From a virus: a stretch of 64,000 nt of DNA. Every line of letters starts with the position of its first letter. Position 1 is the stretch's first letter. Of the stretch, positions 2,437 to 59,116 are shown one piece after another. The stretch is taken from the IMG/VR virus record IMGVR_UViG_3300046821_000134, positions 16,153-80,152 of that record. One strand, written 5' to 3'. The position numbers and the translations under genes are program-made. The notes beneath the pieces were generated by a model. The model had not been told where the DNA came from. It worked only from the letters and a program-made list of their open reading frames with translations, and made no database searches.

Positions 2437-3110
2437 TGGCAAAAGACTCTGGATTGCGTAAAGGCGACAGATTTGGAAGACTTGTGGTTGATTCATGGGT
2501 GAAAGAGAAGCAAGGATGGAGGTGCTTCTGTGATTGCGGTAGTGTTGTTTTTAAACCAGCCAGCCACCTAAAATGTGGGAGTGTCCTATCTTGTGGATGC
2601 TATCGCAAGGAGTGTGATACCTTTAATGGCGGAACAATGTCTTACGAGTTCTCCTCCTTTATAGCAATGCACTCCAGAGCTGGCGATAAGCTCCAAGAAG
2701 GAAGGGTTAAGAGACAATACTACGACCAAGGAATAAGAGTTTGTGAAAGGTGGAGTTACTCCCTTGAAGGCTTTCAGAATTTTATTACTGATCTTGGAGA
2801 AAGACCGGAAGACTACACACTGGAAAGGAAAAATACAAATCTTGGTTACTGCCCTGAAAATTGTTGTTGGGAAACTAAAACAAACCAAGCATTTAACAGA
2901 ACAAAATTCAGGAACAACAAGTCTGGAGTAACAGGTGTATCGTTCGACAAGAGTAAAGATAAATGGGTTGCATATATCCATAAGAATAAGGTAAAGTATC
3001 TACTCGGGTGTTTCAATTCTTTTGAGGATGCAGTTTCAGCCAGAAAATCTGCAGAACTTGAAATTTATCCTGAGAAGATTCAGGACTATATTAGCACACA
3101 GGGGGAATAA
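2436..3110 (+). CDS. HNH homing endonuclease with C-terminal AP2 DNA-binding domain
   Basis: CxCDCG, SCGC, LERKNTNLGYCPENCCW, then NNKSGVTGV...LGCF..FEDAV.ARK.AE (AP2); start taken at the ATG overlapping the upstream TGA. Confidence 0.85.
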   Translation: MAKDSGLRKGDRFGRLVVDSWVKEKQGWRCFCDCGSVVFKPASHLKCGSVLSCGCYRKECDTFNGGTMSYEFSSFIAMHSRAGDKLQEGRVKRQYYDQGIRVCERWSYSLEGFQNFITDLGERPEDYTLERKNTNLGYCPENCCWETKTNQAFNRTKFRNNKSGVTGVSFDKSKDKWVAYIHKNKVKYLLGCFNSFEDAVSARKSAELEIYPEKIQDYISTQGE

Positions 3111-5215
3111 TGGAAGGCTACGTGTTCGATCTAGAGGGGGACAATCTGTACTTGGGTTGTAAGAAGATTTGGTATGGGAATTTCAAATCATTAGACGGCA
3201 CACGTTCCCTTTCAGTTCATCCGTTCCAAGAAGGAAACGAAGAAGCACAAGGTAAGATTTTGGAGTGGATTCATAGCTTCTCTGACAAAGCCTTGTGTTG
3301 CTCCTTTAATGGTTTATCTTACGACCACTTTGTCTTGTGGAGACTTCTGGGCCTTAAACCAACTGTTGGTAAAGGTGGTAAGGATTATTTTGCAGATAAA
3401 GAAGTTATATTTTTTGATGCTTTCTACAATGCTCAGTTTCTTAATCCGAACTTGCCAGAGTTCTCTCTTGCTGCGTTGTCGCGTGGATCAAGTGCAGAGA
3501 AGATTGATTATCGTGAAAGGCTTGTTCAAGCAGGAGCAATGATTGGAAATGAGGTCAAGGGTTTCGAATTTTCTTTCTACAATCCTTTAATGGATGAATA
3601 CTGCGACGCAGACGTTGAAGCAACACGCGTACTTGTTTTGAAACAACTTGCTGAGCTTAAAGAGTTATATGGGGATGTTCGCCCCCCATCGCTGAGAATG
3701 GGTACAAAAGCCCAATTCCTCATGAAAGCCCAAGAACACACAGGGCACGGCTTTGATGAAAAATTGGCAGCAGAGGTAATGATCAGTTTGAACAAGGACA
3801 TGGAAGAACTTGAGTCAGAGGTTCTCCCTAAGCTTCCGCCACGCCCTTTGAAGAAAGGGGAGGAAGCAGAGTACTCAATGCCCGCAAAACCTTACAAGAA
3901 GGATGGGTCTTTTAGTAGTCATATGGAGAACTTCATTTCCAAGCACTCCGGTGTGGTTAAGTCTAAAGACACTGTTGAGTTCTTCGGTAAGGACTATAAG
4001 GTTGAGGCAAAGAAGATTTTAGATATAAAGCTTCCAATGGTTATTGGGGATCAACAGCATTTCAAAGAGTGGCTTCTCAGTCAAGGGTGGGTGCCTACTT
4101 TCTATAATTTTCAACGTGGCCCAGATGGTAAGCCTGTTAGGGACGACAAAGGTAACTACATCGAAACATCTCCGAAGTTGCAGGAACAAGGGGTGATCTG
4201 CCCAAATCTTCTTGAATTAGAGGGCGACGTAGTTAAGGAGGTTGTTAAGTTTTTATCTTTAAGGAATCGCAGGTCTGTGCTGCAAGGTTGGTTGGATAAT
4301 CCCCGTCTAAAATACGATGGAAGACTGCCAACAGCTTCCTCAAAAATTGCCAACTCTCACAGGCAATGTCACGCAGTGGTTTGTAATGTTCCTCGTGCTG
4401 GGGGTCAGAGTCTGTATGGGGACGAGTTTAGGAGCCTGTTTTGTGCAGAGGGAGAGAACCTTATCGCTGCTGCTGATGCAAGTGGGCTAGAGCAGCGTGT
4501 TGCTGGACACATGACTTTTAAGTATGATGAAGGCAAGTACGCGGAGGAGTTGCTGAAAGGGGATGTACACTCCAAGGTTGCATTTGCAATGTTTGAAAGA
4601 GAACTGGCTGCCTTAGGGTTCTCCCCAGACAAGTTTGACAAAGAGGACAGAAGATTTAAGCCATTTAGAAGCAAAGCTAAAACAGCAGGATATGCTATAC
4701 TGTATGGTTGTTCCCCAGCAAAGCTAGCCAAAACCCTCAACAAACCAGATAAGGACGGAAAACGCCTGCACAAAGCATTCTGGGACGCAAATCCCGCAAT
4801 GGCGCAGTTGGTTGAGAATATTGGAAAGTATTGGGAAACAAAAGGTAAAAAGACATTTGTGCCTGCTGTGGACGGTAGGTTGCTGAGAACTCGTTCAAAG
4901 CATTCTCTTTTAAATAATATCCTACAGAGTTTGGGGGCAATCGTAATGGACTTAGCTTGTTGTTTCATGGATGCAAAACTTGGTGAAATGTTTATTGATG
5001 AACTTGGGAGACCATATTACCTGTACAAAGGCAAACAGGTCAGGCGTGTCGTCTACTATCACGACGAGTATTCTTTTGAGTGTGCCCCAGAGGTAGCGGA
5101 GGAAGTGAAGAAAATGGCAGAAAACAGCATTGCTGAAGCTGGAAGATTCTTTAAACTAAACGTAGAGTTGGCTGGAGAGGGGAAGGTGGGTAAATCATGG
5201 CAAGCGGTGCATTGA
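3110..5215 (+). CDS. polA: family A DNA polymerase with 3'-5' exonuclease (T7-like)
   Basis: ExoI FDLEGD, ExoII FNGLSYD, ExoIII YCDAD; motif A ADASGLEQR, motif B RSKAKTAGYAILYG, motif C YHDE. Confidence 0.95.
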   Translation: MEGYVFDLEGDNLYLGCKKIWYGNFKSLDGTRSLSVHPFQEGNEEAQGKILEWIHSFSDKALCCSFNGLSYDHFVLWRLLGLKPTVGKGGKDYFADKEVIFFDAFYNAQFLNPNLPEFSLAALSRGSSAEKIDYRERLVQAGAMIGNEVKGFEFSFYNPLMDEYCDADVEATRVLVLKQLAELKELYGDVRPPSLRMGTKAQFLMKAQEHTGHGFDEKLAAEVMISLNKDMEELESEVLPKLPPRPLKKGEEAEYSMPAKPYKKDGSFSSHMENFISKHSGVVKSKDTVEFFGKDYKVEAKKILDIKLPMVIGDQQHFKEWLLSQGWVPTFYNFQRGPDGKPVRDDKGNYIETSPKLQEQGVICPNLLELEGDVVKEVVKFLSLRNRRSVLQGWLDNPRLKYDGRLPTASSKIANSHRQCHAVVCNVPRAGGQSLYGDEFRSLFCAEGENLIAAADASGLEQRVAGHMTFKYDEGKYAEELLKGDVHSKVAFAMFERELAALGFSPDKFDKEDRRFKPFRSKAKTAGYAILYGCSPAKLAKTLNKPDKDGKRLHKAFWDANPAMAQLVENIGKYWETKGKKTFVPAVDGRLLRTRSKHSLLNNILQSLGAIVMDLACCFMDAKLGEMFIDELGRPYYLYKGKQVRRVVYYHDEYSFECAPEVAEEVKKMAENSIAEAGRFFKLNVELAGEGKVGKSWQAVH

Positions 5216-44082: not shown

Positions 44083-44083
44083 G

Positions 44084-44449
44084 TTAAGCCCCGAACGAAA
44101 CTGTTACAGCCCCGTTAAATACCCGCCATGTGTCCCCATTAGCCCACGTCACCTTGATTGTGTAGAATCCTGTCTTCCAAACGATAGGGGAGGTGTTCTC
44201 GTCTGTGATTTTCACTTCCACCCACCCATCTGCAAGCAACGTAGCTGTTGCTGTAGGAGAAGCACCCTTAGTAGTGATTAGCACGCTTGCAGTGGGAGAC
44301 TGTTTATCTGTGATAGAGAATTCAGCGCTACAGCCAGTGAAGTCAACAGGTGTTCCGGGAGCTGTGCCTGTAAGCATTTGAAACTTGAACGTCCAGCTTT
44401 GTCCAGTGTAAATCACCACGTTCTGTGTTGCGGGGGATGGTTCATTCAT
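44084..44449 (-). CDS. putative fibre adaptor (BppU N-terminal-like)
   Basis: G......F........PVDFTG..A...I...Y...V........RV..G.V.V pattern. Confidence 0.6.
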   Translation of the reverse strand: MNEPSPATQNVVIYTGQSWTFKFQMLTGTAPGTPVDFTGCSAEFSITDKQSPTASVLITTKGASPTATATLLADGWVEVKITDENTSPIVWKTGFYTIKVTWANGDTWRVFNGAVTVSFGA

Positions 44450-44714
44450 CTGATAATCCTCTAATCCGTGCTTCAGCTTCCATCAGGGCAATACGCTCAA
44501 CTTCCTGATTGTGACGTTTTAGCTCTCGCAGGGAAGCTGCGTCTTGTTTTCGTCTATCTGCTTGCGATTGCTTATCTCGCCAGACGCTCCATACAAAGCC
44601 GCCTATCGTAATCAATAAGCCAACAATTGCAACCATCATCTCGGGGGAGACAAGGGCTATGCCTGCTCCTGTGATGGTTACGCTATTCTCCGCTAATCTT
44701 TCTCTGACGTTCAT
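44442..44714 (-). CDS. putative holin
   Basis: small protein with hydrophobic segment(s) and a highly charged C-terminus; first gene of the late unit; start after GAGG (track start 44777). Confidence 0.55.
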   Translation of the reverse strand: MNVRERLAENSVTITGAGIALVSPEMMVAIVGLLITIGGFVWSVWRDKQSQADRRKQDAASLRELKRHNQEVERIALMEAEARIRGLSDE

Positions 44715-44840
44715 GGCTTTCCTCAAGACATTAAATGGGTTGTGTAAAAATTGTTCAAGGGCGTTCTTCCCATTCAAGTCGGAAGATTCCAGTGGCAGTG
44801 CAGTTTCATAGCACTTCCTTAGTATTTGTCTATATGTACT

Positions 44841-44869
44841 ATTATACCATGAGAATTGTTGAAAGTCAA
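44841..44869 (-). promoter_or_regulatory. sigma70-type promoter (divergent pair, leftward)
   Basis: TTGACT-N17-TATAAT. Confidence 0.8.
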
Positions 44870-44881
44870 TAGTGTTTGTTG

Positions 44882-44910
44882 TTGATTTTTGTATGGGTGG
44901 ATGTTATACT
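44882..44910 (+). promoter_or_regulatory. sigma70-type promoter (divergent pair, rightward)
   Basis: TTGATT-N17-TATACT with extended TG. Confidence 0.75.
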
Positions 44911-44999
44911 ATAAAAGTAGATACCAAGATTCCGAGAATCTATGCCAGATTGTTAGCATGTCTTAAGCATAAAAAAGAGGAGAATATCTCGTCTAAATT

Positions 45000-45014
45000 C
45001 CTCTGTAAGCCTTG
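45000..45014 (+). repeat. 15-bp box, copy 1
   Basis: CCTCTGTAAGCCTTG; exact reverse complement at 53336-53350. Confidence 0.8.
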
Positions 45015-45136
45015 GTGGGCAAGGGAAGTGTTCCTTTTCACGGTTCACTATCCTTGTATAGGGTATAGTAGTGTAGTCTATAAGGTATGGTAGTATCTAT
45101 AAGTATCTCTATAATAATTAAGAGAAGGAGAGGGAA

Positions 45137-46438
45137 TTGATTAAAGATTTGTTGGCTATGGAGGAGGGTGAAAGACAAGATGTGTCTATGTCTACAACCC
45201 ACTTCAATCTGCACTACCACAAAGCAAGAGCGTATACGCACATACACAGCACTCTCTCTTCTTTGTCTGCAGGATGTAATGAATTATGGTGTTTGATAAC
45301 TAACACAGCCCGAGCGTTGAAGTACGGAGCTAAGGGTATGAAGATACCAAGACACTTCAGCCCATACAAAGGCAATCCTCGCCAGCTTAGTCATAAAAGA
45401 ATGGTGTTGCTTTTAGATAAGATGGTGGAGAATGGATACCTTGTCTTCTATCGTGGTGGGCTGTTGAAGATGAGTGAAGAACAAAGGCTTCTCTCTATCT
45501 ACATGTTCACGGATAAATACCTATCGCTCTGGCAAGACGTGGACGTAAGCAAAGAAAAGAATGAATATAACTTCATTCAGGTGAGGGATAGACTTACACA
45601 GGAGCACAAGACCACAAAAGGTATTAAAGGTGCAGAGCAGATGCGTATGTTTATGGAGCAGTACAACACGCTGCTTGAGAACACCAGTCTAGCTGTGGAT
45701 GGTAAAGCACTCCCTATTCAACAATACGCAAGAATCTTCACGGACAGTGTTGACAAAGGGGGTCGCTACTACAACACAACAGGCGGGATTCAAGTTGTGC
45801 CAAGCCGATTACGGAGCTACGTGGAGATCAACAAGGAGAGAGTGGTTGAGCTTGACTTCTGCGCGCTTCATCCTAACATTTTGTATGAACGTGTTGAAAG
45901 AGAAACAGGGATTGTGGTTGATATTGATGACCCTTACAGTGTTGACATCTCGTCGCTGTTCGCTGAAGACAGTACCATCTGTACAGGAAAACATAACCCG
46001 GCCAGAGTGCTCGTCAAACAAGTGTTCCTAAAAGGGCTTAACGCCAAGGATATACGCAGCGCAGCAGGCTCTGTTACAGAGAGTTGGTACGAGGAGTACA
46101 AGAAAGGAAAAGACGGAGCATTCTATGGCCTGTCTCCGCAGGGGACATCAGGCACGTTTCCTGCTAAAGCATTGTGCGAACTTGTTGCTAATGCACACCC
46201 ATTAATCAAAGATGCTTTCTTTTCTGACTGTGGGCTATTGCTTCAAAGGATAGATAGTGATATAATAACACTTGTGTTGAAAAACTTTATGGACATCGGT
46301 GTGTGTGCATTAAGCTGGCACGACAGCGTAGTTGTTCCAGCGAAGTATAAAGAAATGTTACACGCACAGATGGTGTTGGCCTACACAACCGTTATTGGAA
46401 GTGGTGGTAGGTGCAAGATTGATACGAAGGAGAGCTAA
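45137..46438 (+). CDS. minimal PolA/T7-RNAP superfamily polymerase-like protein, paralogue 1
   Basis: GGRYY..Q, motif A VELDFCALHP, motif B R...K, LQRIDS, motif C WHDS; no exonuclease domain. Confidence 0.75.
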   Translation: MIKDLLAMEEGERQDVSMSTTHFNLHYHKARAYTHIHSTLSSLSAGCNELWCLITNTARALKYGAKGMKIPRHFSPYKGNPRQLSHKRMVLLLDKMVENGYLVFYRGGLLKMSEEQRLLSIYMFTDKYLSLWQDVDVSKEKNEYNFIQVRDRLTQEHKTTKGIKGAEQMRMFMEQYNTLLENTSLAVDGKALPIQQYARIFTDSVDKGGRYYNTTGGIQVVPSRLRSYVEINKERVVELDFCALHPNILYERVERETGIVVDIDDPYSVDISSLFAEDSTICTGKHNPARVLVKQVFLKGLNAKDIRSAAGSVTESWYEEYKKGKDGAFYGLSPQGTSGTFPAKALCELVANAHPLIKDAFFSDCGLLLQRIDSDIITLVLKNFMDIGVCALSWHDSVVVPAKYKEMLHAQMVLAYTTVIGSGGRCKIDTKES

Positions 46439-46439
46439 G

Positions 46440-46664
46440 ATGGTGTATGCCAGAGAAGACGGGTGGACGCTCGTTGCACAATCCCACACTTGGGACGATG
46501 GCTTCCGTGAAATTGAGATGAAAGGAAAGGAGCTTCGCATAACAAAGATACAAAGTATTGAGGAAGGGGAAATGGAGTTGGATTACCAAGGAAACATTCT
46601 CCACATCCCCGTTGAAAAACTAATGTTCGACAACAGGGATTTAGTCAGCTCAAGTAAATATTAA
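46440..46664 (+). CDS. hypothetical protein
   Basis: ATG after AAGGAG within track ORF 46332-46664. Confidence 0.6.
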   Translation: MVYAREDGWTLVAQSHTWDDGFREIEMKGKELRITKIQSIEEGEMELDYQGNILHIPVEKLMFDNRDLVSSSKY

Positions 46665-46804
46665 ACAAACAGCTTTATCCCCGTCTACAATCGATTTAAA
46701 TCATTTCAAGGTAGGGGTATAGCCACACCTCTAATTAAATCGCTAATTGCCAATGATTACATGGCTTCTTGCCCTATCCACACACATGAAAGGAACCCTC
46801 CTAA

Positions 46805-47122
46805 ATGAAACTTCTGCTTTCTGCTCTAATTTCTCTCTTTTCCCTCTCTGCCAATGCCCTCACATTCCAAGATGTTGAGATTGGTGATGTGAAGCTGGTG
46901 GCCTTCCTTGGTGACACATCTCTGTTCATTTCCAATGAAGAATGTTCCCTTGCTGATAAGGTTGTTAGTGATGCTTCCCTGTACATCTTCCACAAAGAGC
47001 AGCACAAGAAGGGTTGTGTAGTGCTGAAAGAAGATGTCCCCTACGCCGTGTTCTATGAACAAGAGCAATACTCTGTGTTCAAGATTAACATGGAGATTTT
47101 CACACGCTTTGTAGAGCTTTAG
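46805..47122 (+). CDS. hypothetical secreted protein
   Basis: Sec signal peptide MKLLLSALISLFSLSANA. Confidence 0.75.
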   Translation: MKLLLSALISLFSLSANALTFQDVEIGDVKLVAFLGDTSLFISNEECSLADKVVSDASLYIFHKEQHKKGCVVLKEDVPYAVFYEQEQYSVFKINMEIFTRFVEL

Positions 47123-47124
47123 GA

Positions 47125-47153
47125 TTGACTTATCAAGCGTTCTGATGTATAAT
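47125..47153 (+). promoter_or_regulatory. sigma70-type promoter
   Basis: TTGACT-N17-TATAAT. Confidence 0.8.
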
Positions 47154-47176
47154 GTTGTTATGGAAGTGAGGAAACT

Positions 47177-47359
47177 ATGAACTATGTAATTAACGCTGTA
47201 GAAGGGTTTTTCCTGTTTGTGCTAGTGCTGCTCTCAGGGATTGTGTTTGCTGTACAGGCAGCGATTGCCATTGTGTTCTACGCCATCTCTGTTGGAATTG
47301 CCTATCTGGCGTTTGGTGTAGCGTTTGGTTGTCACAAGCTGAAGAGTTTGTTTAGCTAA
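47177..47359 (+). CDS. small membrane protein
   Basis: 60 aa, almost entirely hydrophobic. Confidence 0.7.
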   Translation: MNYVINAVEGFFLFVLVLLSGIVFAVQAAIAIVFYAISVGIAYLAFGVAFGCHKLKSLFS

Positions 47360-47368
47360 GGAGAATGT

Positions 47369-47956
47369 ATGGAAGACATTTCTAAAGAAATGCCAACAGA
47401 AGAGCAGCGTAATGAAGCTGTAGAAGAATTCATCTCTGAGGATGAGCTTCTAAAGACAGAGAACAAGGAACCCACAATTACAGAGCGTAAGCGTTGGGCT
47501 GACATCCAAGAAAAGAAGGAGATGATGAAAGGGGTGAGGGGGCCTCTTGGATTCTCTGAGATTCAATTCAAGGAACAGAAGGATATGCTCATCCCTTGGC
47601 TTGGGCGGGATATCCGTGCAAAGCTGTGTGATAGTGTAGAAGCCAAGAATGTGTTACGTGAGTGGTGGGTGAAAGATTGCATCCTTATTGCAGAGCCTGA
47701 CATCGTGCGTTTCACACATGCCTTGATGCACAGCTTCGCCCGTGGCTACTACTACTGTGGAAACTGGCGCAATGAATTGCCGTTCATGCACGGCCCATTG
47801 ATGTGCTGCACGTTGTTCTCATTCGAGCGTCGTCCTCCTAAGCTCTCCGAGGAAGATCAAGCGTTGCTGGAGAAGACAGGCTCTACGGAAGGATCAGCAC
47901 GAGAAGGTCTTGAGGCTCCCCCTGCAAAGAAGCGCGGGCCTAAGCCTAAGACGTAA
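47369..47956 (+). CDS. hypothetical protein
   Basis: 195 aa, AAGGAG RBS, basic KKRGPKPK tail. Confidence 0.8.
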   Translation: MEDISKEMPTEEQRNEAVEEFISEDELLKTENKEPTITERKRWADIQEKKEMMKGVRGPLGFSEIQFKEQKDMLIPWLGRDIRAKLCDSVEAKNVLREWWVKDCILIAEPDIVRFTHALMHSFARGYYYCGNWRNELPFMHGPLMCCTLFSFERRPPKLSEEDQALLEKTGSTEGSAREGLEAPPAKKRGPKPKT

Positions 47957-47986
47957 TAAGATTTTGTAACAACAAAAAGGAGAGAT

Positions 47987-48736
47987 ATGTCACGACATCC
48001 TGAAGACGAAGATATTGTTAAGCCTGTTCGTCGTAAGACTAGGGCTGTGAAGGAGGCTGTAACACAACAGCGAGGAAAGGGGCTGAACGAGTTTGTACTT
48101 ACAGGCTCTCAAAAGGAGCTTGTCAATAAGATCAATGGAAATGTTATCACATTCGTAGACTCCGAAGCAGGGACGGGGAAGAGTTCAGCAGTGCTGTACA
48201 GTTTCTGTAAGGAGTATTTGCTCGATAAACAAAAACAGATTGTTGTGATACGCACTCCAGTTGAAGCCGGCCCTGATAAAATAGGATTTCTTCCGAGCGA
48301 TCTTGCGTCAAAATGTGCACCACACTTCTCCAGCAGTAAGGCATTGCTTGAGCAATTCCTTGGTAAAGGGGTAGTAGAGACAGATATGGATCATCGCATA
48401 TTCTTCCGCGTTCCTAATTTCTGTCTTGGTGCAACGTATGATAATTCACTGATCCTAATTGATGAGGCACAACAGCTACAGCCAATCATCCTGAAACTGC
48501 TACTTGAACGCATTGGTTTGAATACAAAAGTGGTTGTTGCAGGCTGCTCGTCACAGTTATATATCAAGGATAAAGATCGTAACGCACTGGCGGACGCAAT
48601 CAAGCGATTCTTTGTAGAGGAAGACGGTGAAAAAATTCCTAAGTATAAAGATATGTCATTCCATGAGTTTGATCTTGAAGAATGTCACCGTGCAGACGTT
48701 GTAAAAGATGTCATCCGTGGATACAGGGGGGCTTGA
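47987..48736 (+). CDS. phoH: PhoH-like ATPase
   Basis: AGTGKS Walker A, IGFLP, GATYDN..ILIDEAQ, RIG...KVVV.G...Q. Confidence 0.92.
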   Translation: MSRHPEDEDIVKPVRRKTRAVKEAVTQQRGKGLNEFVLTGSQKELVNKINGNVITFVDSEAGTGKSSAVLYSFCKEYLLDKQKQIVVIRTPVEAGPDKIGFLPSDLASKCAPHFSSSKALLEQFLGKGVVETDMDHRIFFRVPNFCLGATYDNSLILIDEAQQLQPIILKLLLERIGLNTKVVVAGCSSQLYIKDKDRNALADAIKRFFVEEDGEKIPKYKDMSFHEFDLEECHRADVVKDVIRGYRGA

Positions 48737-48871
48737 TGGCTAGACAAACAAAAGAGATTTTCACTCTTGACGGAATAGAAGCTAGAGACCAAGCAATCCG
48801 TTTGCTAAATCAGCAAGGTGCTGGATATTCCGCTAACCACGGAAAAGATTAACAACAAGGAAAGGAAAAAC

Positions 48872-49636
48872 ATGCAACGTAAAAATAAAACAGTTATGTC
48901 AGACACAATGGGGTTTGTAGATTCAGAATTTCCTGTCGTGTGCACTTCAGTCCACTATAAGACCTACCGCCTGTTCCTTGACAATGCTATCGAGAGCCCT
49001 CAAGATTTTCGCTTCCATTTGCAAGCTCTCTACGAAGCAAGTGAAGATGATGAAGTGGTGATGCACTTAAGCTCCCCCGGAGGTTGTATTGATGGGATGC
49101 TTGCCCTCATCCACGCAATGCGCCAATGCCAAGCCCCTGTAGACATCATTGCAACAGGGACGATTGCCAGTGCAGCAGCGCTGATCCTGTGCAATGCCAA
49201 CTCCATGCCAAGCATCTCCCCGGGCAGCATGATATTGTTCCATACGGCCTCTGGAGGAAGCTACGGCCCGATGCAAGATATGCAGGAATACTTTGAGTTT
49301 GCTAATAAGCGTATGCGTGAAGTGCTTGAGTTGAATGCGATTGGTGTGCTATCCCCTGCAGAGATTGATGACATCATTCTCAACAAGAAGGAGTTGTTGC
49401 TGACAGCAGAGGAATTCGTAGAACGCTTTAATCGCAAAATGGAATACGCCAACCACACAGTGGAGCTGCTAGACTCCCTTGGTGTAGAATATGAAGCACG
49501 AACGCCTAAAGTGTATGTGGAAATGATGAAGCGTATGTTTGAGACGGAAGCCAAGAAAGACGAGGCTTCGCCTCCGGCAAAGAAACCGGCAAAGCGTGTA
49601 AGTAAGCCGCGTGTGAAGAAAGAAACTGAAGCATAA
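48872..49636 (+). CDS. ClpP-like serine protease
   Basis: SSPGG, IASAAA (Ser), ILFH (His); ATG after AAGGA (track start 48818). Confidence 0.85.
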   Translation: MQRKNKTVMSDTMGFVDSEFPVVCTSVHYKTYRLFLDNAIESPQDFRFHLQALYEASEDDEVVMHLSSPGGCIDGMLALIHAMRQCQAPVDIIATGTIASAAALILCNANSMPSISPGSMILFHTASGGSYGPMQDMQEYFEFANKRMREVLELNAIGVLSPAEIDDIILNKKELLLTAEEFVERFNRKMEYANHTVELLDSLGVEYEARTPKVYVEMMKRMFETEAKKDEASPPAKKPAKRVSKPRVKKETEA

Positions 49637-49638
49637 AG

Positions 49639-49668
49639 AAAAGCCCCTCCGTTAAGGAGGGGCTTTTT
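49639..49668. terminator. bidirectional terminator
   Basis: AAAAGCCCCTCC-GTTAA-GGAGGGGCTTTTT between convergent genes. Confidence 0.9.
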
Positions 49669-49692
49669 GTTTGGCCGTAATAGGGCGGAGTG

Positions 49693-50976
49693 TTACGTCA
49701 CTTTAATCATGTAATATGGCCGTCCAGCTTCAGAGATGTTTCTAACCGCGAAAGTATCAGGGGCGCTTGTGTTTCCTGTGAAGGTGTATACAGTTGTAGA
49801 GGTTGATCCGTTGTAGTAATATGCCAGCACCCTCACGTTTCCAGATTGATCTATGCCGATGTTGTAAGCTGTTGTTGCTGCTGTCGCAAGCAGCGGGGAG
49901 AAATTATATTCAATTATGAACGTATCAGCATCTGTGGATGTGATTAGAATGTTCTGGAATGTGAGATAGAATTTCCCACCAACTGTTGTACTGGAGGAAT
50001 AACTCAGGACACCTGCTAGCCCATACGCTATAGTTGTCCCTTGAGCTGGGAGCAACGTCTTTGCACAAGCAGGAACCACAATTTCTCTATAAGTGAAAGA
50101 GGAGCCATCTGTAGTTATTGCAAACTGGATGACTCCACCTCCAACAGTGGTATCAGCAGAGAGCACTTTACCAAATATGTATTTTCCTGCTACACAATCC
50201 AAGAATGAGTATCCCAGCAAGGCGGGATCAGTGTTTCCGAGAGCAGTCCAAACTCCGCCGACAGCCCCTCCAACTAAGGAGCTTTGCCCAAGGCGATACA
50301 TGCGGGTTCCATTGCCAAGTAACCAATTACTTCCGCTTCCTGCAAACCACGTAGGGCCATCTCCGGGACCGTTTGTACAGCCTGTAACATCGGCAGCTAC
50401 TGTACCATCGTATGTAGCAATTCTCCAAGTGGTGGAGGTTGCTGTGCTATAACCTATCTGATACCATTCAGAGGGGCTATACCCAGATGAATTGATGGAG
50501 GTGCTTCCGGGAACAGTGGGAGCGCTCCATGTAATTCCATTAGTAGTGTAACGAAGCAGGCTGCCGTTCGGAGCAGAGCTGTAAAGGCGTGTATTTCGCA
50601 GGACATGCTTACATGCACTCATTTGAGGGGTTGTACATAATTGCCAAGTAGTGCCGTTGGTTGAATATACAAATCCATCTGTCCAATTACTACCTATCTT
50701 TGTAAATAGTTTTGAGGCGGCTGCTTGCACATTTCCTGTTACGAAGTTGCCGTTTGGTGTGTTGGTAAACGCATCCTTGAATGGAACCAAGTCTGCGTTG
50801 GTGAATCCCGCAGCGGCTACATATTCAGGATAATCCGCAGTGGCATACGTACGCCCTGTGCATGGGAGGTAGGTGGCCCCATCTATTACTGTTGGACCAG
50901 TTATGTTGGTGGCTCTTGTTAGAAGAGTGCCAATGGGGTTTGGAGAAGCGCTAAGAAAAGTTGATGCATTACTCAT
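49693..50976 (-). CDS. putative fibre tip/adhesin (BNR-like beta-propeller repeats)
   Basis: YL.C.G..Y...DYP collar-like start; repeated S/T.NG..W and T.DG..F motifs. Confidence 0.65.
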   Translation of the reverse strand: MSNASTFLSASPNPIGTLLTRATNITGPTVIDGATYLPCTGRTYATADYPEYVAAAGFTNADLVPFKDAFTNTPNGNFVTGNVQAAASKLFTKIGSNWTDGFVYSTNGTTWQLCTTPQMSACKHVLRNTRLYSSAPNGSLLRYTTNGITWSAPTVPGSTSINSSGYSPSEWYQIGYSTATSTTWRIATYDGTVAADVTGCTNGPGDGPTWFAGSGSNWLLGNGTRMYRLGQSSLVGGAVGGVWTALGNTDPALLGYSFLDCVAGKYIFGKVLSADTTVGGGVIQFAITTDGSSFTYREIVVPACAKTLLPAQGTTIAYGLAGVLSYSSSTTVGGKFYLTFQNILITSTDADTFIIEYNFSPLLATAATTAYNIGIDQSGNVRVLAYYYNGSTSTTVYTFTGNTSAPDTFAVRNISEAGRPYYMIKVT

Positions 50977-50992
50977 GTTGTTTCCTTATATG

Positions 50993-52549
50993 TTAGCTGA
51001 GAGTCCAATCGCCCTCTGCGGAGCAATAGGTGAGTACGAAAGTTTTCTTAGGCATGTTGAGTGTTAAGTTTTCAGCCACCCCCATGATTGTCTCCCCGTT
51101 GCGATCTACAACAGAATTCACAGCTGCGCCTGCATTGATGATTACAATAACGTCTCCGTTTGCGGGAGCAGCGGGCAGCGTGAGTGTTAGGTTTGGAAGC
51201 GTGTATTTGTAAATTGCATTTGATGTGAGCGTTGTATTAACTGCAATGGTGACAGGGGCAGCTAATCCTCCCCCACCGCCTGTAACATTCACTGTCAATG
51301 TATTTCCAACAAGAGAGGTGTTTACAGCCCCTGTGAAATTCACTGTTGTGGCTGTTCCTGCTGAAGCTACGAGGCTCCCCTCTTCATTGTATTGCACAGG
51401 AGCTTGTATAGACGGGAAAGTTACCCATGTCTTGTCACCTCTCCAATACTGAGACGTAGTGCCTGCAGAGATTGTTGCCTCTTTCCCGCTTAGGGCTGTA
51501 CTTGCAGCTGTGCTGACAGGCTTATCTGCATCAGATGTGTTGTCTACGTTACTAAGCCCCACGGAAGATTTATTCAGCACCTTCCAAGAGGCTGTAGAAG
51601 CACTGTCCCCTGTAATGGCATACTCACTTGCACATGTTCCGCTAATGGCAATGCCATTGATTTTAGCTACAACAGGGAGATCGGCTGTTCCACCAAAATC
51701 ATTGGTAAGCTTCAGGATGCCCTTTACGGTGCTTGAAGCATCTACGGCAGTCCAACCACTTCCTCCAGAGTTAGGGACATCCACTGTCACTGTGTTGCCA
51801 GCAAAGGAAGCTGTAACACCGGCTCCGGTGAAATTGAGGATTGTAGCAGCCCCTGCAGCAGCCACTTGAGTTCCCTCTTCATTCACTTGTATAGGGGCTT
51901 GAATACTTGGTAAGGATACCCAAGTTTTGTCTCCCCGCCAGTATTGCGCTGTAGTGCCAGCTGTTATGGAGGCTTCCTTGCCATTCAAGGCAGTTTGTGT
52001 GGCAGATGAGACAGGTTTGTCTGCGTCTGAGGTGTTATCAACATTGTTAAGCCCTACAGCAGCTTTATCCAGTGTTGTCCACACCTTATCCCCTCTCCAG
52101 TACTGAGCAGAGGTGCCTGAGGCTACGGTAGCCTCTTTCCCGTTGAGAGCTGTTTGTGTAGCAGAGCTAATTGGCTTATTGGAATCAGAGGTGTTGTCCA
52201 CGTTACCAAGCCCAACAGAGGCTTTATCGAGCGTAGTCCACGTCTTGTCTCCACGCCAATACTGCGCTGTCGTTCCTGCAGTGATGGAAGGCTCTGCCCC
52301 AAGGCTCCCTGCTGTGTGTGTATGATCTCCTGCTGCAACAGTGCCCGTAGTTGTGCCTACACCAAGGTAGGCTGCACCACCAAGGCCAAGAGCTGTACGT
52401 AGCTGTGCTTGTGTGATAACTTCTGTAAGCCCTACAACACTGATAACAGGGACGGCCCTACAAGCCCTTCCAACAGCGTTAATCCCCCACAAGTATGTAG
52501 GGGTTTCCACCGCTTGTACATTAATGTCTTTCACTGTAACATCTGCCAT
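50993..52549 (-). CDS. repeat-containing fibre protein
   Basis: four AGT/SGT..QYWRGDK.W and three VGL.NVDNTSD..KP.S.A..TAL repeats; C-terminal LTLPAAP..GD domain. Confidence 0.8.
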   Translation of the reverse strand: MADVTVKDINVQAVETPTYLWGINAVGRACRAVPVISVVGLTEVITQAQLRTALGLGGAAYLGVGTTTGTVAAGDHTHTAGSLGAEPSITAGTTAQYWRGDKTWTTLDKASVGLGNVDNTSDSNKPISSATQTALNGKEATVASGTSAQYWRGDKVWTTLDKAAVGLNNVDNTSDADKPVSSATQTALNGKEASITAGTTAQYWRGDKTWVSLPSIQAPIQVNEEGTQVAAAGAATILNFTGAGVTASFAGNTVTVDVPNSGGSGWTAVDASSTVKGILKLTNDFGGTADLPVVAKINGIAISGTCASEYAITGDSASTASWKVLNKSSVGLSNVDNTSDADKPVSTAASTALSGKEATISAGTTSQYWRGDKTWVTFPSIQAPVQYNEEGSLVASAGTATTVNFTGAVNTSLVGNTLTVNVTGGGGGLAAPVTIAVNTTLTSNAIYKYTLPNLTLTLPAAPANGDVIVIINAGAAVNSVVDRNGETIMGVAENLTLNMPKKTFVLTYCSAEGDWTLS

Positions 52550-52583
52550 TATCTCATCCTCTGTGTTGCTCCTATATACATCT

Positions 52584-52612
52584 ATTATACCATGCGTTTA
52601 GAAGATTGTCAA
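52584..52612 (-). promoter_or_regulatory. consensus sigma70 promoter for the fibre cassette
   Basis: TTGACA-N17-TATAAT on the minus strand. Confidence 0.85.
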
Positions 52613-52627
52613 TACGTGTTTCTTCTA

Positions 52628-52655
52628 TTGCATTCTTCTTTCTTTGTGCTACATT
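52628..52655 (+). promoter_or_regulatory. possible divergent promoter
   Basis: TTGCAT-N16-TACATT with extended TG. Confidence 0.45.
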
Positions 52656-52707
52656 AGAGACATGTTCTCACTGTTTATATCAATATTTCTTCATAGGAGG
52701 CTAAATC

Positions 52708-52905
52708 ATGTCTGTTACAGAACGTAAATATCTAGCTATAGCAATCATGTTCTCTTTGTGTGCTGTGTTTGCAGGGCTATTGGCAGGGCTGGATGTGGCT
52801 AAATATGTGATGACAGCTTTTATGATTATTTCAACAGGGGCTTGTGGGTGGTACGTGTTCGGATGGGCTTTTGATGAGCTGTTTGGGGAGGAGGAAGAAG
52901 AATGA
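52708..52905 (+). CDS. small membrane protein
   Basis: two TM segments, AGGAGG RBS. Confidence 0.75.
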   Translation: MSVTERKYLAIAIMFSLCAVFAGLLAGLDVAKYVMTAFMIISTGACGWYVFGWAFDELFGEEEEE

Positions 52906-53231
52906 CACAGAAACACAAACACGCAGAATACATCGTTGCTTTCGCTAACGGGGAAGCTGTGCAATACATAAAGCTAGGGCTTAAGGCCCCTTTTGACCAG
53001 TGGGACGATGTGATGTCTGTTTGTATATTCGAGTACGACGACATGGTGTTCCGCATGAAGCCGAAGACAATCACTACGAAGGGGTATAAGAGGTTTGCCT
53101 TTCAGGACCCTACTTCTGGAGAGTGGTTTGTTGATACATACACCGAGGGTTGTACGTACAGCTTGGATGATGGTGAGGTGTGGATTGACAAGGAATGGCA
53201 GTATGCTGTGATTGAGGGGAAGGGGCGATGA
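52902..53231 (+). CDS. hypothetical phage protein
   Basis: HKHAE.I.A.A.G..VQ...W...F.....FR.KP pattern. Confidence 0.8.
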   Translation: MTQKHKHAEYIVAFANGEAVQYIKLGLKAPFDQWDDVMSVCIFEYDDMVFRMKPKTITTKGYKRFAFQDPTSGEWFVDTYTEGCTYSLDDGEVWIDKEWQYAVIEGKGR

Positions 53232-53335
53232 CATTTTTTACTACTATAGGTGGTAGTAAATTACTCCAAACAGACCCCACTAATAGTAGCCTCTGCTCGT
53301 CAGCTACCCCGCTCTTCGCGTAGACCGTTACTGCG

Positions 53336-53350
53336 CAAGGCTTACAGAGG
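53336..53350 (-). repeat. 15-bp box, copy 2 (inverted)
   Basis: CAAGGCTTACAGAGG is the reverse complement of 45000-45014. Confidence 0.8.
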
Positions 53351-53444
53351 GGCAGCCTTATTCAATCCTCTCTATCCCTTCCTTCAGGGGCTTTAAGGAT
53401 TATTATTAGGGTTATTAGTATACATATATTATAAAGGAAGAAGA

Positions 53445-54671
53445 ATGATTGAACTAAACAAAGAAACAAATACACTCCTTACATCAATCAGGGGATGTCA
53501 AGTGTTGACGTATTCAGACGATGTGCTAAAGCAACAAGTGATACGTTATAGAAAGAACCAGAGGTGGAGTTGGGTGGATGATGTGCTCATCTCTAAGTAT
53601 GGGGCTAAATATTATAAAGAGATTGGCATGATTAACACACTCGTCGCTACAGCAAAGAGACATGGGCTGAAAGGAAGTGTAATCTCCTTAAATCAAAACA
53701 ACTACACTTCAGCCAACAAGCTAACAAAACAAGGAATCTCTTTCTCTCGTACACACTCTCTCATTCACAAGATGGATGAGGATGGGCTAATCACCCTGTT
53801 CCTTGGTTATCGTGATGCACACACAGGGGAAGGACAATCTTCTTTCTTCATCACAATGCCAGAATACGATGAGCTATGGGAGGGGGTGGACACATCTTCT
53901 GCTATGGCAAGGCAAGAAGAGGACATCGTCATTAGAGACAGCAAGACAAAAGAGTCTCTGTCTACACGTCCATTTCAAGGCATTACGTTGCTAAGGCAAG
54001 ATTTGAATGCCTACAATAAGATGTTAGCACAACACAAGCTGACAATCAATGGAGAGCCATTAGATGTTTCCTATAAGCGCGTATTCCACGATAGCTTGAA
54101 AGGAAGTGGAAGATATTATAGCAACAATAGCTTCCAGACAATCAGGAAAGAACATCGAGACGATATACGGATAGATGGACTACAGACAGCAGAGCTTGAT
54201 TATTCAGCCATTCATCCTCGCATTCTTTACACATTAGATGGACATATCCTTAGCAAAGGATGGAGCCCGTATGATCCAGAAGATTGCACCCTCCCAAGAG
54301 AGATACGAAAGCTAGCCCTTATCATTATGCTTTATGCGAGAGACAAGCATTCAGCAACATTCGAGTTGTCACGACAAGCGGAGATGCTCTATGAAGAAGC
54401 CAAGGAGCTTATAGGAGAACTTGAAGAACACAATGAACGTATAAAGCAACATTTCTACAAGAAAGATTTATGGAAAGCATTGCAGCATTACGACAGCAGG
54501 ATTGCCAGCGATGTATTGGCTACGTGTATGGAGAGAAACATCTGTGTGCTCCCCTACCACGATAGCTTCAGAGTGGAAGAAGGGAGTGCTGAGATATTGT
54601 ATGGGGTGCTGTATGAGAGCTGGAAGAGAGTGTTAGGGAATACGAATAACTGTGTTGTTGAAAGAAAATAA
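53445..54671 (+). CDS. minimal PolA/T7-RNAP superfamily polymerase-like protein, paralogue 2
   Basis: SGRYY..Q, motif A AELDYSAIHP, motif B REIRK......LY, LQHYDS, motif C YHDSF. Confidence 0.78.
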   Translation: MIELNKETNTLLTSIRGCQVLTYSDDVLKQQVIRYRKNQRWSWVDDVLISKYGAKYYKEIGMINTLVATAKRHGLKGSVISLNQNNYTSANKLTKQGISFSRTHSLIHKMDEDGLITLFLGYRDAHTGEGQSSFFITMPEYDELWEGVDTSSAMARQEEDIVIRDSKTKESLSTRPFQGITLLRQDLNAYNKMLAQHKLTINGEPLDVSYKRVFHDSLKGSGRYYSNNSFQTIRKEHRDDIRIDGLQTAELDYSAIHPRILYTLDGHILSKGWSPYDPEDCTLPREIRKLALIIMLYARDKHSATFELSRQAEMLYEEAKELIGELEEHNERIKQHFYKKDLWKALQHYDSRIASDVLATCMERNICVLPYHDSFRVEEGSAEILYGVLYESWKRVLGNTNNCVVERK

Positions 54672-54710
54672 CACAGGCCATAAGGCATTGCGTAGTCGAA
54701 AGAAAATAGC

Positions 54711-54739
54711 TTGACATCCAACAACACAACGTGTAGAAT
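54711..54739 (+). promoter_or_regulatory. sigma70-type promoter
   Basis: TTGACA-N17-TAGAAT. Confidence 0.8.
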
Positions 54740-54771
54740 GGCTGTATGGATTAACACAAAAGGAGAACACA

Positions 54772-55248
54772 ATGAACAAGATTGAACAGATGGAAGCACA
54801 ATTGGAACAATTGAAGAGGGAGCTTGAAGAATATAAGAAGGGGGCTCAAGAGGTTTGTGTTAGGCCACAAATCTCTGTTCCTCCGGCGTTGCTTCCGGTT
54901 GAAGGGAAATACTATATCAGTGAAGTTTTCAGCAGTGAGCCTATCGGTTGCACTACCAAAGCCTCAAAGGAAGATCAAAACGTATTCCCTGACGAAGAAA
55001 CAGCAGATGCTTACGGAGAAGCCTTCAGTGTAATGCTTGAGCTGCGTAGACAGCCGGGGAGCTGTGCTTTTGATGGCGGCGAGACTATGTATGCGATTGA
55101 TGCAGACGGGGACGCCTCCGCGAGAGAGTGGCGAGGTAGCTACACAGTGTCCCCTCCATTCTCATCTGAGGAGTGGGCTGAAAAGGCAATAGATGCTGTG
55201 GGGAAAGAACGCATTGTTCAGGCTTATAAGACGTTGAGGGGGAATTGA
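54772..55248 (+). CDS. hypothetical protein
   Basis: 158 aa; N-terminal coiled coil; F.SEE.A.KAI..VG C-terminus; strong RBS. Confidence 0.8.
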   Translation: MNKIEQMEAQLEQLKRELEEYKKGAQEVCVRPQISVPPALLPVEGKYYISEVFSSEPIGCTTKASKEDQNVFPDEETADAYGEAFSVMLELRRQPGSCAFDGGETMYAIDADGDASAREWRGSYTVSPPFSSEEWAEKAIDAVGKERIVQAYKTLRGN

Positions 55249-55252
55249 AAGA

Positions 55253-55438
55253 ATGAACACAGAAAAGCAAACACTAGGTGACATGATGTTTTCTTTGTTA
55301 GGGAAGCATCCCGAATCAAGGGATGACCTAACATTTGTGTTCTACCTGCTGGCAGACTGCAGAGAACGTATTGCGGAGCTTGAGAAAGAGCTGCAGGAAA
55401 TGGAGCTTGATAGGGATTGCTGGAAGGAGAGGTATTGA
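55253..55438 (+). CDS. hypothetical protein
   Basis: 61 aa, coupled to the MTase gene. Confidence 0.65.
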   Translation: MNTEKQTLGDMMFSLLGKHPESRDDLTFVFYLLADCRERIAELEKELQEMELDRDCWKERY

Positions 55439-56214
55439 TGGCATCAACAGATATTGATGTGGGGTTGTATCAAGGGGATTGTCTAAAGCTAATGCCAGAG
55501 CATGTTGAAGATAAATCTGTCGATTTGATCTTGGCAGATTTGCCTTATTGCACCACTTTAAATACGTGGGACAATCTAATCCCTATGGACTCTCTTTGGG
55601 AACAATACAAGCGTGTTCTCAAGAACACAGGGACAGTGCTACTGTTTGGTAATCAACCATTCACAAGTATGCTTGTATTGAGCAACCCTGCTTGGTACAA
55701 GCAATGTCTTGTGTGGGCAAAGGGCAAATGTGGCTCTCCGGGATTAGCTAAGGTAAGGCCAATGCAAGTGACAGAAGACATCGTTGTGTTTGCCCCTAAG
55801 CGGACAGTGTATAATCCAATCATGACTGAAGGCACCCCTTACTCAAGAAAGAGCAAGGATGAAGAAGGATATGTTGGACGATGTAACAATCACAAATACG
55901 GATTGAAGCCAAGGAAGGAATTCCATAACGAAGGCACACGCTATCCAACAAACATTCTACGCTTCTCTCGTGAGTGGAGCGCTCAACAGCAAGTGCACCC
56001 AACACAGAAGCCTGTAGCCCTGATGGAATGGCTAATCAAGACATACAGCAATGAAGGGGATGTTGTGCTGGATAATGTTATGGGCAGCGGGCCTGTTGGT
56101 GTAGCTGCCGTACGTACAGGGAGAAGCTACATAGGGATGGAGATGGACGAGACATATTTCAACATTGCTAAGGGGAGGGTAGAGAATGAACACAAAGCCA
56201 TCAAGACCCTTTAA
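55438..56214 (+). CDS. N6-adenine/N4-cytosine DNA methyltransferase (beta class), orphan
   Basis: motif IV DLPY, HPTQKP, motif I LDNVMGSG in beta order. Confidence 0.92.
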   Translation: MASTDIDVGLYQGDCLKLMPEHVEDKSVDLILADLPYCTTLNTWDNLIPMDSLWEQYKRVLKNTGTVLLFGNQPFTSMLVLSNPAWYKQCLVWAKGKCGSPGLAKVRPMQVTEDIVVFAPKRTVYNPIMTEGTPYSRKSKDEEGYVGRCNNHKYGLKPRKEFHNEGTRYPTNILRFSREWSAQQQVHPTQKPVALMEWLIKTYSNEGDVVLDNVMGSGPVGVAAVRTGRSYIGMEMDETYFNIAKGRVENEHKAIKTL

Positions 56215-56276
56215 GCACCTTCCTCCTAACAAGAGGCACAAGGATAAGAAGAAGGAAGATAAAGGAGAGCACAAGG

Positions 56277-56450: not shown

Positions 56451-56451
56451 T

Positions 56452-56484
56452 GGGCTATATGGGGCAATAGCCCCTTTTATTTTG
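56452..56484 (+). terminator. terminator-like hairpin
   Basis: GGGCTAT...ATAGCCC followed by CTTTTATTTT. Confidence 0.6.
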
Positions 56485-59105: not shown

Positions 59106-59116
59106 GGTCAATCTCC

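Follow-up and report, generated by a model that had tools for sequence, protein, structure and literature searches.

The locus raises the question of why a phage that encodes its own replication enzymes should carry two additional genes for small polymerase-like proteins. Both genes lie in the window (the whole 64,000-nucleotide stretch of viral DNA that was analysed), which is part of the 80-kb genome of a freshwater phage. The phage encodes a regular family A DNA polymerase, the separate replicative PolA listed in a preliminary description of this DNA, and a primase/helicase of the gp4 type (phrog_239, E = 5e-156). Since the phage has its own PolA and gp4-type primase-helicase, the two mini-polymerases are regarded as accessory enzymes. 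No gene whose product would open an origin or prime it for such a T7-like replisome was seen in the phage gene content. The genes and the features around them are located as follows.

3110..5215, plus strand: regular family A DNA polymerase (701 aa, PF00476)
44841..44910: divergent promoter-like pair, minus strand 44869-44841 (11/12) and plus strand 44882-44910 (9/12, with TG)
44917..45136, plus strand: non-coding DNA upstream of paralogue 1, about 220 nt, AT-rich in its 3' part
45137..46438, plus strand: divPolA2 paralogue 1 (ORF1), 433 aa, TTG start; predicted winged-helix-like head at about residues 29-141 and thumb-less PolA-like palm and fingers at about 142-433; key residues R210 (45764-45766), D240 (45854-45856), H245, K294 (46016-46018) and H395-D396-S397 (46319-46327)
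46439..46804: non-coding DNA downstream of paralogue 1, containing a palindrome (46672-46723)
53232..53444, plus strand: non-coding DNA upstream of paralogue 2, about 213 nt
53445..54671, plus strand: divPolA2 paralogue 2 (ORF2), 408 aa; predicted winged-helix-like head at about residues 46-152 and palm and fingers at about 157-408; key residues R223 (54111-54113), D252 (54198-54200), H257, K289 (54309-54311) and H372-D373-S374 (54558-54566)

The preliminary description had taken the two ORFs to be paralogues that share colinear motif blocks, and both points were upheld. BLASTP aligned ORF1 and ORF2 at 27% identity over 390 residues (E = 2e-29), with 22% identity in the head and 29% in the core, and both ORFs matched phrog_4756 (E = 7e-73 and 5e-83). 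The TTG start gave ORF1 the family-typical N-terminus MI.L. The two mini-polymerase genes are the product of an ancient duplication. The shared blocks are real and were conserved across a set of 150 diverse representatives (50% clustering). G222, R223, R238, D252, K289, H372 and D373 (ORF2 numbering) were invariant in all 150, so that both catalytic aspartates, D252 and D373, are intact, and Q231, E250, H257, R285, Q347, D350 and S374 were conserved in at least 90%. The mapping of the blocks onto T7 RNAP held against the T7 sequence, in which GRVY....FNPQ, RSVTK....Y and IHDSF correspond to GRYY....FQ, REIRK....Y and YHDSF of the ORFs. Within the window's clade, the steric-gate position was occupied by His in 137 of the 150 representatives, and motif C read HDS in 142. 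Paralogue 2 is under purifying selection, with a dN/dS of 0.08 relative to a relative with an 88% identical protein. Neither ORF matched a family in Pfam (to E <= 1) or NCBIfam, and neither reached the gathering score of the Pfam family A DNA polymerase model PF00476. The absence of an exonuclease domain from both proteins was borne out by Pfam and phrog searches, and at less than half the size of T7 RNAP both are, as had been noted, too short for a full single-subunit RNAP.

AlphaFold modelling and fold searches addressed the predicted right-hand palm, and both models, themselves of good confidence, matched the palm and fingers of the PolA/T7-RNAP superfamily. The model of paralogue 1 (pLDDT 94.3, pTM 0.90) matched an apicoplast polymerase (Z 14.1), yeast mtRNAP (Z 12.7) and T7 RNAP (Z 11.4), and that of paralogue 2 (pLDDT 82.9) matched the apicoplast polymerase (Z 15.7), Klenow (Z 14.2), and mtRNAP and T7 RNAP (Z 13.8). 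The C-terminal approximately 250 residues superposed on family A polymerases (Z 14-16) and on T7 and mitochondrial RNAPs (Z 11-14), with model alignments to polymerases beginning at about residues 142-172. Pol nu and Pol theta were among the top structural matches (Z 10.5-14.3), and N4 RNAPII was matched at Z 7-8. Both models have one helix ahead of the hairpin (in paralogue 2 a single helix, residues 180-195, between head and hairpin), and the bi-helical coiled-coil thumb is not present. The placement given to the two aspartates is deduced from where the strands and hairpin lie, together with the superpositions. The models support the assignment of both proteins as minimal, thumb-less members of the superfamily with intact catalytic residues. 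The N-terminal head of about 110 residues matched many winged-helix chains over model residues of about 29-152 at Z 4.8-5.9, low scores that weakly suggest the winged helix proposed earlier. In these models, kinship with PolA and T7 RNAP is visible by structure only and not by sequence profiles. Family profiles had no match among PDB sequences, hhalign of the family against T7 RNAP, T7 DNAP and the window's PolA was not significant, and hhalign against a 45-row PolA alignment gave a probability of 0.15, yet motifs A and B lined up.

By sequence comparison, both ORFs belong to divPolA2, a family already published in 2024 (Yutin, Tolstoy, Mutz, Wolf, Krupovic, Koonin 2024, Virol J 21:200; PMC11348598). 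The family profile matched the divPolA2 representative AUR84708 of Vibrio phage 1.063.O (AUR84708.1; MG592441.1 25469-26761; E = 2.3e-52), and BLASTP of AUR84708 gave E values of 2e-11 with ORF2 and 2e-7 with ORF1. Yutin et al. noted two to three paralogues in some genomes and a variable neighbourhood, and favoured repair or RNA polymerase roles (PMC11348598). Because this very family, its multiple paralogues per genome included, had been published, the novelty that the preliminary description implied for the polymerase pair was too high. Clustered at 50% identity, the family counted 10,026 clusters at a cut-off of E <= 0.001 and 4,202 at E <= 1e-30, one ESM Atlas cluster being auto-named 'DNA-directed RNA polymerase family protein'. 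Copy number ranges from 1 to 3 among phages, and exactly two copies are present in this 80-kb genome. Rheinheimera barbavirus proteins were matched by tblastn and Foldseek; tblastn found one copy in each of 114 Rheinheimera phage records, and each of the approximately 20 ICP1 records also has one. With either single protein as query, no close relatives were found in viral contigs, and a metagenome scan for close relatives returned two short contigs only. A 70%-identical relative is carried on an 82-kb contig.

Each mini-polymerase gene forms its own unit between operons, with the promoter of the next operon directly after it. The neighbours of the two genes include PhoH, a ClpP-like protease, a tail-fibre-like protein, a DNA methylase and small ORFs, and the downstream ORFs at 46805-47122 and 54772-55248 gave no family matches. 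Strong sigma70-like sites were confirmed at the operon starts of this region. Of 27 related loci, 15 have the start of the family gene no more than 1.2 kb from a divergent junction, compared with 15 of 110 other plus-strand ORFs, a biased background in that these ORFs were drawn from those very loci; the non-coding gap that precedes the family gene has a median of 155 nt. A 15-bp box, CCTCTGTAAGCCTTG, occurs upstream of paralogue 1 at 45000-45014 and, in reverse orientation, upstream of paralogue 2 at 53336-53350, and is conserved at only 11 of 15 positions in the closest relative. Upstream of paralogue 2, the proximal 90 nt or so are kept in the relative with the 88% identical protein. Iterons and tandem repeats were found upstream of neither gene, and RNA folding compared to shuffled sequence was not significant (z-scores of -1.9 for upstream region 1 and -1.5 for region 2). 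Rfam returned nothing on 44000-57500 but two sub-threshold leader matches at 49.6 kb. A search of the 80-kb genome for recurrent k-mers, with a minimum of four places for k = 13-14, of five for k = 12 and of six for k = 11, found none. In one metagenome contig 44874 is followed by 46664, with the upstream region and gene 1 left out; this joint is weak (shorter side 30 nt, likeness threshold 80%) and may reflect replacement rather than deletion. Contig depth differs over gene 1 in four metagenomes, in a manner not readable as copy number, and the RNA runs considered contained too little of the stretch to be of use.

The whole-genome cumulative GC skew has its global minimum at about window position 44848, within the divergent promoter pair and directly upstream of gene 1, and may mark a strand switch only, because skew here also tracks the direction of transcription. 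At copy 2 there is no skew extremum at the smoothing used. The phage ICP1 protein gp100 belongs to the family (E = 4e-72) and is encoded at 58951-60618 in ICP1_2006_E, for which an 8-min theta-replication coverage peak was reported 'near the 60 kb position' (Barth et al. 2019, PMC7145576), a coincidence read from a coverage plot with kb-scale resolution in one genome. No replication initiator is named in the ICP1 literature searched.

The best reading of these results, which we hold tentatively and at somewhat less than an even chance, is that both enzymes carry out origin-linked primer synthesis as initiators. It is favoured by the fold, the invariant active-site residues and the low dN/dS; by the GC-skew minimum next to copy 1, the location of the ICP1 homologue where coverage data put the theta origin, and the enrichment at divergent junctions; by a phage that has PolA and a primase/helicase but nothing to open or prime an origin; and by the precedent of CCPol-MP of SCCmec, an A-family enzyme with de novo priming activity at a preferred site. 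Both genes are predicted to encode active enzymes in which a thumb-less, exonuclease-less polymerase core is fused to a winged-helix-like DNA-binding head. At the divergent junction the head would recognise a site within or close to the region upstream of its own gene, and there the core would synthesise a short primer de novo; the flavour of the GRxY and HDS motifs hints that this primer may be RNA. The T7-like replisome (gp4-type primase-helicase and PolA) would then extend that primer, and the role of the mini-polymerase would parallel that of T7 RNA polymerase at the T7 primary origin. The data show the fold, the conserved catalytic residues, purifying selection, membership of the family and the genomic positions; that the enzymes bind DNA and start chains de novo, what they produce and that they take part in replication is what we infer. 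The findings are compatible with the earlier suggestion of a primase or initiator specific for an adjacent DNA site. Arguing against origin priming are the lack of iterons or repeats, the 11/15 conservation of the 15-bp box, the location of copy 2 away from skew extrema, and the variable neighbourhood reported by Yutin et al., who favour roles in repair or as RNA polymerases.

One of those roles, raised by Yutin et al. (PMC11348598), is that of specialised single-subunit RNAPs with no part in replication, whose head would recognise a site from which one phage gene, a few such genes or a non-coding RNA would be transcribed. GR(Y)Y...Q, HDS(F) and the aliphatic residue four positions past the motif-B Lys have an RNAP flavour, Z scores to mitochondrial and T7 RNAP lie near those to DNA polymerases, and the ESM Atlas cluster bears an RNAP name. 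However, the 80-kb genome has no recurrent 11- to 14-mer, unlike T7-type promoter sets, operon starts here have strong sigma70-like promoters, and motif A of copy 2, DYSAIHPR, resembles DYSQIELR of DNA Pol I. Low processivity is also expected of thumb-less enzymes, and ICP1 is thought to depend on host RNAP (PMC9040626), a statement that predates recognition of the divPolA2 family. We consider transcription by these proteins unlikely. An accessory DNA polymerase function in repair, recombination or gap filling, the first option of Yutin et al. (PMC11348598), is still less probable. The gate His (137/150) and HDS motif (142/150) of the window's clade speak against this, although AUR84708 resembles DNA Pol I in its steric-gate Glu and FDE motif C, the top structural matches are DNA polymerases, among them Pol nu and Pol theta, and the genes are additional to a replicative polymerase. 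Two paralogues whose heads have diverged (22% versus 29% in the core) are hard to explain for a general enzyme, and the genes have no repair-gene link and are found at divergent junctions, preceded by long gaps.

The preliminary description had also offered selfish polymerase cassettes, and dispensable units of promoter, leader and polymerase gene that spread like free-standing homing genes with little benefit to the phage would account for self-contained units between operons, a copy number of 1 to 3, and a contig joint (44874-46664) that omits exactly the gene-1 unit. The phage has, moreover, many homing elements: HNH, GIY-YIG and an insert resembling an intein. Yet the paralogues are just 27% identical and hence show no recent transposition, dN/dS is 0.08, and every ICP1 (about 20) and Rheinheimera phage (114) record has one copy. 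No nuclease, integrase or flanking repeat accompanies either gene. The joint, with its 30-nt side and 80% likeness, is weak and may have arisen by replacement, and a mobile origin-plus-initiator module would produce the identical pattern. Selfish spread is the least probable of these explanations.

Taken by itself, the window yields a modest result, two further members of an already published family. The family matters more widely because it is very large, has no Pfam model and includes a member in ICP1, a phage used in the laboratory. If priming at origins is true, it would explain how replication starts in phages that have a T7-like replisome without a T7 RNA polymerase, and a polymerase-fold primase would join the DnaG and AEP classes in phages. 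A broader and rather doubtful extension is that divPolA2 constitutes a third, fold-distinct class of phage initiators, namely winged-helix-guided, site-specific primer synthases of the PolA/T7-RNAP fold that would both mark origins and fire them for T7-type and other replisomes, with a His/HDS subtype making RNA primers and a Glu/xDE subtype DNA primers.

T7 RNAP primes replication for a gp4/gp5-type replisome. The window proteins resemble it and the two-subunit N4 RNAPII in the palm and fingers fold and in the GRxY and HDSF motifs. They are, however, less than half as large as T7 RNAP and have neither its N-terminal promoter-binding domain nor its specificity loop; they have no Pfam RNA_pol match, their head is winged-helix-like, and the genome has no multi-copy promoter. 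Published divPolA2 proteins share with them an active palm (motifs A, B and C intact), the absence of thumb and exonuclease, an N-terminal globular domain, and genes that are additional to a regular DNA polymerase, have a variable neighbourhood and occur as two to three paralogues in some genomes. The regular polymerase is PolA here but PolB in barbaviruses, and His at the steric gate with an HDS motif C in the window's clade contrasts with Glu and FDE in AUR84708. The divPolA2 paper describes the N-terminal domain as without similarity, whereas a weak pointer to a winged helix was obtained here, and it does not discuss origins.

The TV-Pol family (Iyer, Abhiman, Aravind 2008, PMC2579912), to which the preliminary description had compared the pair, also has a minimal PolA/T7-RNAP core with a hairpin Arg, two catalytic Asp, RxxxK and no nuclease domain (R223, D252, R285...K289 and D373 are the residues of this type conserved here), occurs in viruses and mobile elements beside regular replication genes, and is predicted to prime. 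The comparison stands only as a resemblance in the shared minimal core. TV-Pol has a two-helix thumb, which the window proteins lack, and is tied to D5-like helicases, resolvases or integrases, whereas no link to these or to a transposase was found at the two genes or at 32 related loci. TV-Pol can be reached from PolA by PSI-BLAST or HHpred, unlike divPolA2 by the profile searches used, and the family profile had no match at E <= 1 in phage Ma-LMM01, said to carry TV-Pol. CCPol-MP of SCCmec (Bebel et al. 2020, eLife, PMC7581432; also treated in a Rice 2022 preprint) is likewise a divergent A-family polymerase; it works as a DNA primase without need of a primer, close to a specific site in a mobile element, and no other enzyme of this fold offers a biochemical precedent for priming. 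CCPol needs the small OB-fold partner MP for ssDNA binding and priming; family searches of the downstream ORFs make no MP-like partner evident beside either window gene, and a putative DNA-binding head is fused to the polymerase core instead.

The full virus record comprises 80,152 bp with a 115-bp terminal repeat, and the window sequence is also present in metagenomes from freshwater and wastewater. Only two copies of the polymerase family under study, here called mini-polymerases, were found in this genome:

45137-46438 (+), ORF1 (gene 1), 433 aa, TTG start
53445-54671 (+), ORF2 (gene 2), 408 aa

The encoded proteins share 27% identity across 390 residues (E=2e-29), which confirmed the preliminary description of the pair as paralogs. 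Both matched phrog_4756 ('unknown function'), and a Pfam and NCBIfam scan of the two proteins matched no model.

Structural models were generated for ORF1 with 47 relatives (pLDDT 94.3, pTM 0.90) and for ORF2 with 19 relatives (pLDDT 82.9). For both, the best 50 Foldseek matches in the PDB were all family-A DNA polymerases (50/50). VIA-align, a structure search independent of Foldseek, aligned the ORF2 model with apicoplast Pol at Z 15.7 (rmsd 3.8 Å, 228 residues), Pol nu at 14.3, Klenow at 14.2, and both yeast mitochondrial RNAP and T7 RNAP at 13.8. The ORF1 model scored 14.1 with apicoplast Pol, 12.7 with Pol nu, 12.4 with Klenow, 12.7 with yeast mitochondrial RNAP and 11.4 with T7 RNAP. The two models and both searches (VIA-align Z 11.4-15.7) supported the assignment of these proteins as minimal enzymes of the PolA/T7-RNAP superfamily. 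Neither model contains a recognisable thumb or an exonuclease domain, the latter as had been claimed. The polymerase-aligned part starts at about residue 142-172 and is separated by one helix from an N-terminal domain, which matched many winged-helix proteins (SarA, MarR, PerR, TFE-alpha, ORC, STIV F93, ADAR1 Z-beta and kleisin partners) at Z 4.8-5.9. The earlier winged-helix reading gains from the mutual consistency of these matches, but each is weak singly, and the models point only weakly to a winged helix.

Residues R223, D252, K289, H372 and D373 (ORF2 numbering) were invariant in all 150 family representatives (50% clusters), and both catalytic aspartates, D252 and D373, are intact as first described. 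In the ORF2 model, D252 lies at the end of a beta strand followed by a helix, and H372-D373 occupies a beta-hairpin turn; this modelled placement is the canonical motif A and motif C topology. The proposed motif correspondence with T7 RNAP held on the T7 sequences:

Hairpin motif: GRVY....FNPQ in T7 RNAP, GRYY....FQ in ORF2
Motif B: RSVTK...M...YG in T7 RNAP, REIRK...I...YA in ORF2
Motif C: IHDSF in T7 RNAP, YHDSF in ORF2

Motif A of ORF2 (DYSAIHPR) is similar to that of Pol I (DYSQIELR), whereas the steric-gate Glu of Pol I is replaced in the ORF2 family by an almost invariant His. Comparison of ORF2 with a metagenomic relative (protein 88% identical) gave a dN/dS of 0.08, similar in both domains, indicating purifying selection. 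Given this value and the conservation of the active-site residues, the predicted enzymes are almost certainly active.

Each mini-polymerase gene is a separate unit. The surrounding features are:

3110-5215, regular PolA, the phage's own
genome 11468-13207 (outside the window), gp4-type primase/helicase (phrog_239, E=5e-156)
44841-44910, divergent promoter pair, followed by about 220 nt of non-coding DNA and then gene 1
45000-45014 (+), 15-bp box CCTCTGTAAGCCTTG, upstream of gene 1
47125-47153, strong promoter, after 366 nt of non-coding DNA 3' of gene 1
53336-53350 (-), exact copy of the box in the opposite orientation, upstream of gene 2, which has 213 nt of non-coding DNA 5' of it
54711-54739, promoter 3' of gene 2

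No further exact copy of the box occurs in the window. In the closest relative (88%), 11 of its 15 positions are kept, and the roughly 90 nt adjoining the start codon are well kept. On this sequence evidence the box may act as an operator or binding site common to both genes. Among 27 non-redundant related family loci, the non-coding gap upstream of the family gene has a median of 155 nt, and in 15 of the 27 a divergent junction lies no more than 1.2 kb 5' of that gene, versus 15 of 110 other plus-strand ORFs from those loci. Metagenome contigs connecting 54769 with 56187, and 55259 with 56276, suggest that related phages lack the small ORFs and the N6/N4 DNA methylase 3' of gene 2 or carry other sequence in their place.

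The phage has its own PolA and gp4-type primase/helicase, so the roles of replicative polymerase and general primase do not fall to the mini-polymerases. No multi-copy promoter-like word was found in the 80,152-bp genome, which counts against a transcriptase of the T7 type; an enzyme with just one target site is unaffected by this result. In favour of an origin link, cumulative GC skew over the whole genome reaches its global minimum at about 44848, inside the divergent stretch immediately 5' of gene 1; this signal is confounded, as the transcription direction also switches there. Against such a link, gene 2 lies at no extremum of the same skew, and no iterons and no significant RNA structure were found upstream of the two genes. 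In a single wastewater contig, position 44874 is connected to 46664, leaving out exactly the gene-1 unit; this joint, which is weak (30-nt side, 80% likeness), fits a dispensable cassette and a movable origin module alike. Also bearing on origins, ORF100 (gp100) of ICP1 clearly belongs to the family (E=4e-72). It is located at 58,951-60,618 in ICP1_2006_E, for which a bidirectional theta-replication coverage peak 'near the 60 kb position' was reported at 8 min (Barth et al. 2019, PMC7145576). Only a gp4-type helicase-primase and Pol I are reviewed as ICP1 replication proteins, and a phage RNAP is not predicted (PMC9040626). Priming by this polymerase fold has a single biochemical precedent, CCPol-MP (PMC7581432). 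A primase/initiator function is a plausible prediction for the mini-polymerases.

Homing elements are abundant in this phage. Its large terminase gene (34776-37313 (-), 845 aa) encodes LAGLIDADG and Hom_end domains at residues ~237-321, ahead of the Terminase_6C nuclease domain, and by sequence this stretch looks like an intein-type insertion. An HNH endonuclease gene (2376-3110 (+)) directly abuts the PolA gene upstream, and a GIY-YIG/NUMOD3 homing endonuclease (41742-42455 (-)) lies amid structural genes. Outside the window, the gene for the large subunit of ribonucleotide reductase is broken into two adjacent ORFs 90 nt apart (genome 6010-7758 and 7848-8843 (-)) that match successive parts of phrog_84. 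A tail-fibre-like gene (50993-52549 (-)) carries a 159-nt repeat three times (51420-51578, 51915-52073 and 52074-52232). Contig depth over 50010-51311 was near zero in 3 of 4 metagenomes, but such depth is unreadable as copy number and so shows nothing on host-range variation.

The family profile recovered 10,026 representative clusters at E<=0.001, of which 4,202 reached E<=1e-30. By tblastn, family genes were found in 129-220 phage records, with Vibrio (including all ICP1 records among the matches listed), Rheinheimera, Aeromonas, Pseudoalteromonas, Shewanella and Pseudomonas as hosts. The sole conserved neighbourhood observed belongs to a ~371-aa subgroup (L017, L021, L022, L026, L027), whose gene is preceded in every case by a UvsW-type helicase gene and a ~110-aa ORF. 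Neighbours were Pfam-scanned at L017 only, where a PTPS-like protein lies 3' of the family gene; size-matched ORFs occupy the same positions at the other four loci.

The earlier comparison with TV-Pol stands as resemblance but not as demonstrated membership: the two-helix thumb and the ties to D5-like helicases or recombinases are features of TV-Pol (Iyer et al. 2008, PMC2579912), and the family profile matched nothing in phage Ma-LMM01, which reportedly encodes a TV-Pol. By sequence, the mini-polymerases are already known as divPolA2, to which the window adds two members. This family was described with a variable neighbourhood, an active palm, neither thumb nor exonuclease, and a globular N-terminal domain for which no similarity was found, and its authors guessed at a repair DNA polymerase or RNA polymerase (Yutin et al. 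2024, PMC11348598). Its representative AUR84708 (Vibrio phage 1.063.O; MG592441.1 25469-26761) was matched by the family profile at E=2.3e-52 and by BLASTP at 2e-11 with ORF2 and 2e-7 with ORF1; barbavirus proteins were also recovered, by tblastn and Foldseek. AUR84708 resembles DNA Pol I in its gate Glu and FDE-type motif C. The window proteins have His at the gate and HDS in motif C, as do 137 and 142 of 150 representatives, respectively, and ICP1 gp100 has His and HDA. Judged from these residues, divPolA2 may be split into DNA-type and RNA-type subgroups, and the His/HDS versus Glu/FDE split is absent from PMC11348598. Other additions to the published divPolA2 description are the strong purifying selection (dN/dS 0.08), the positional evidence for an origin role and the interpretation of the N-terminal domain as a winged helix.
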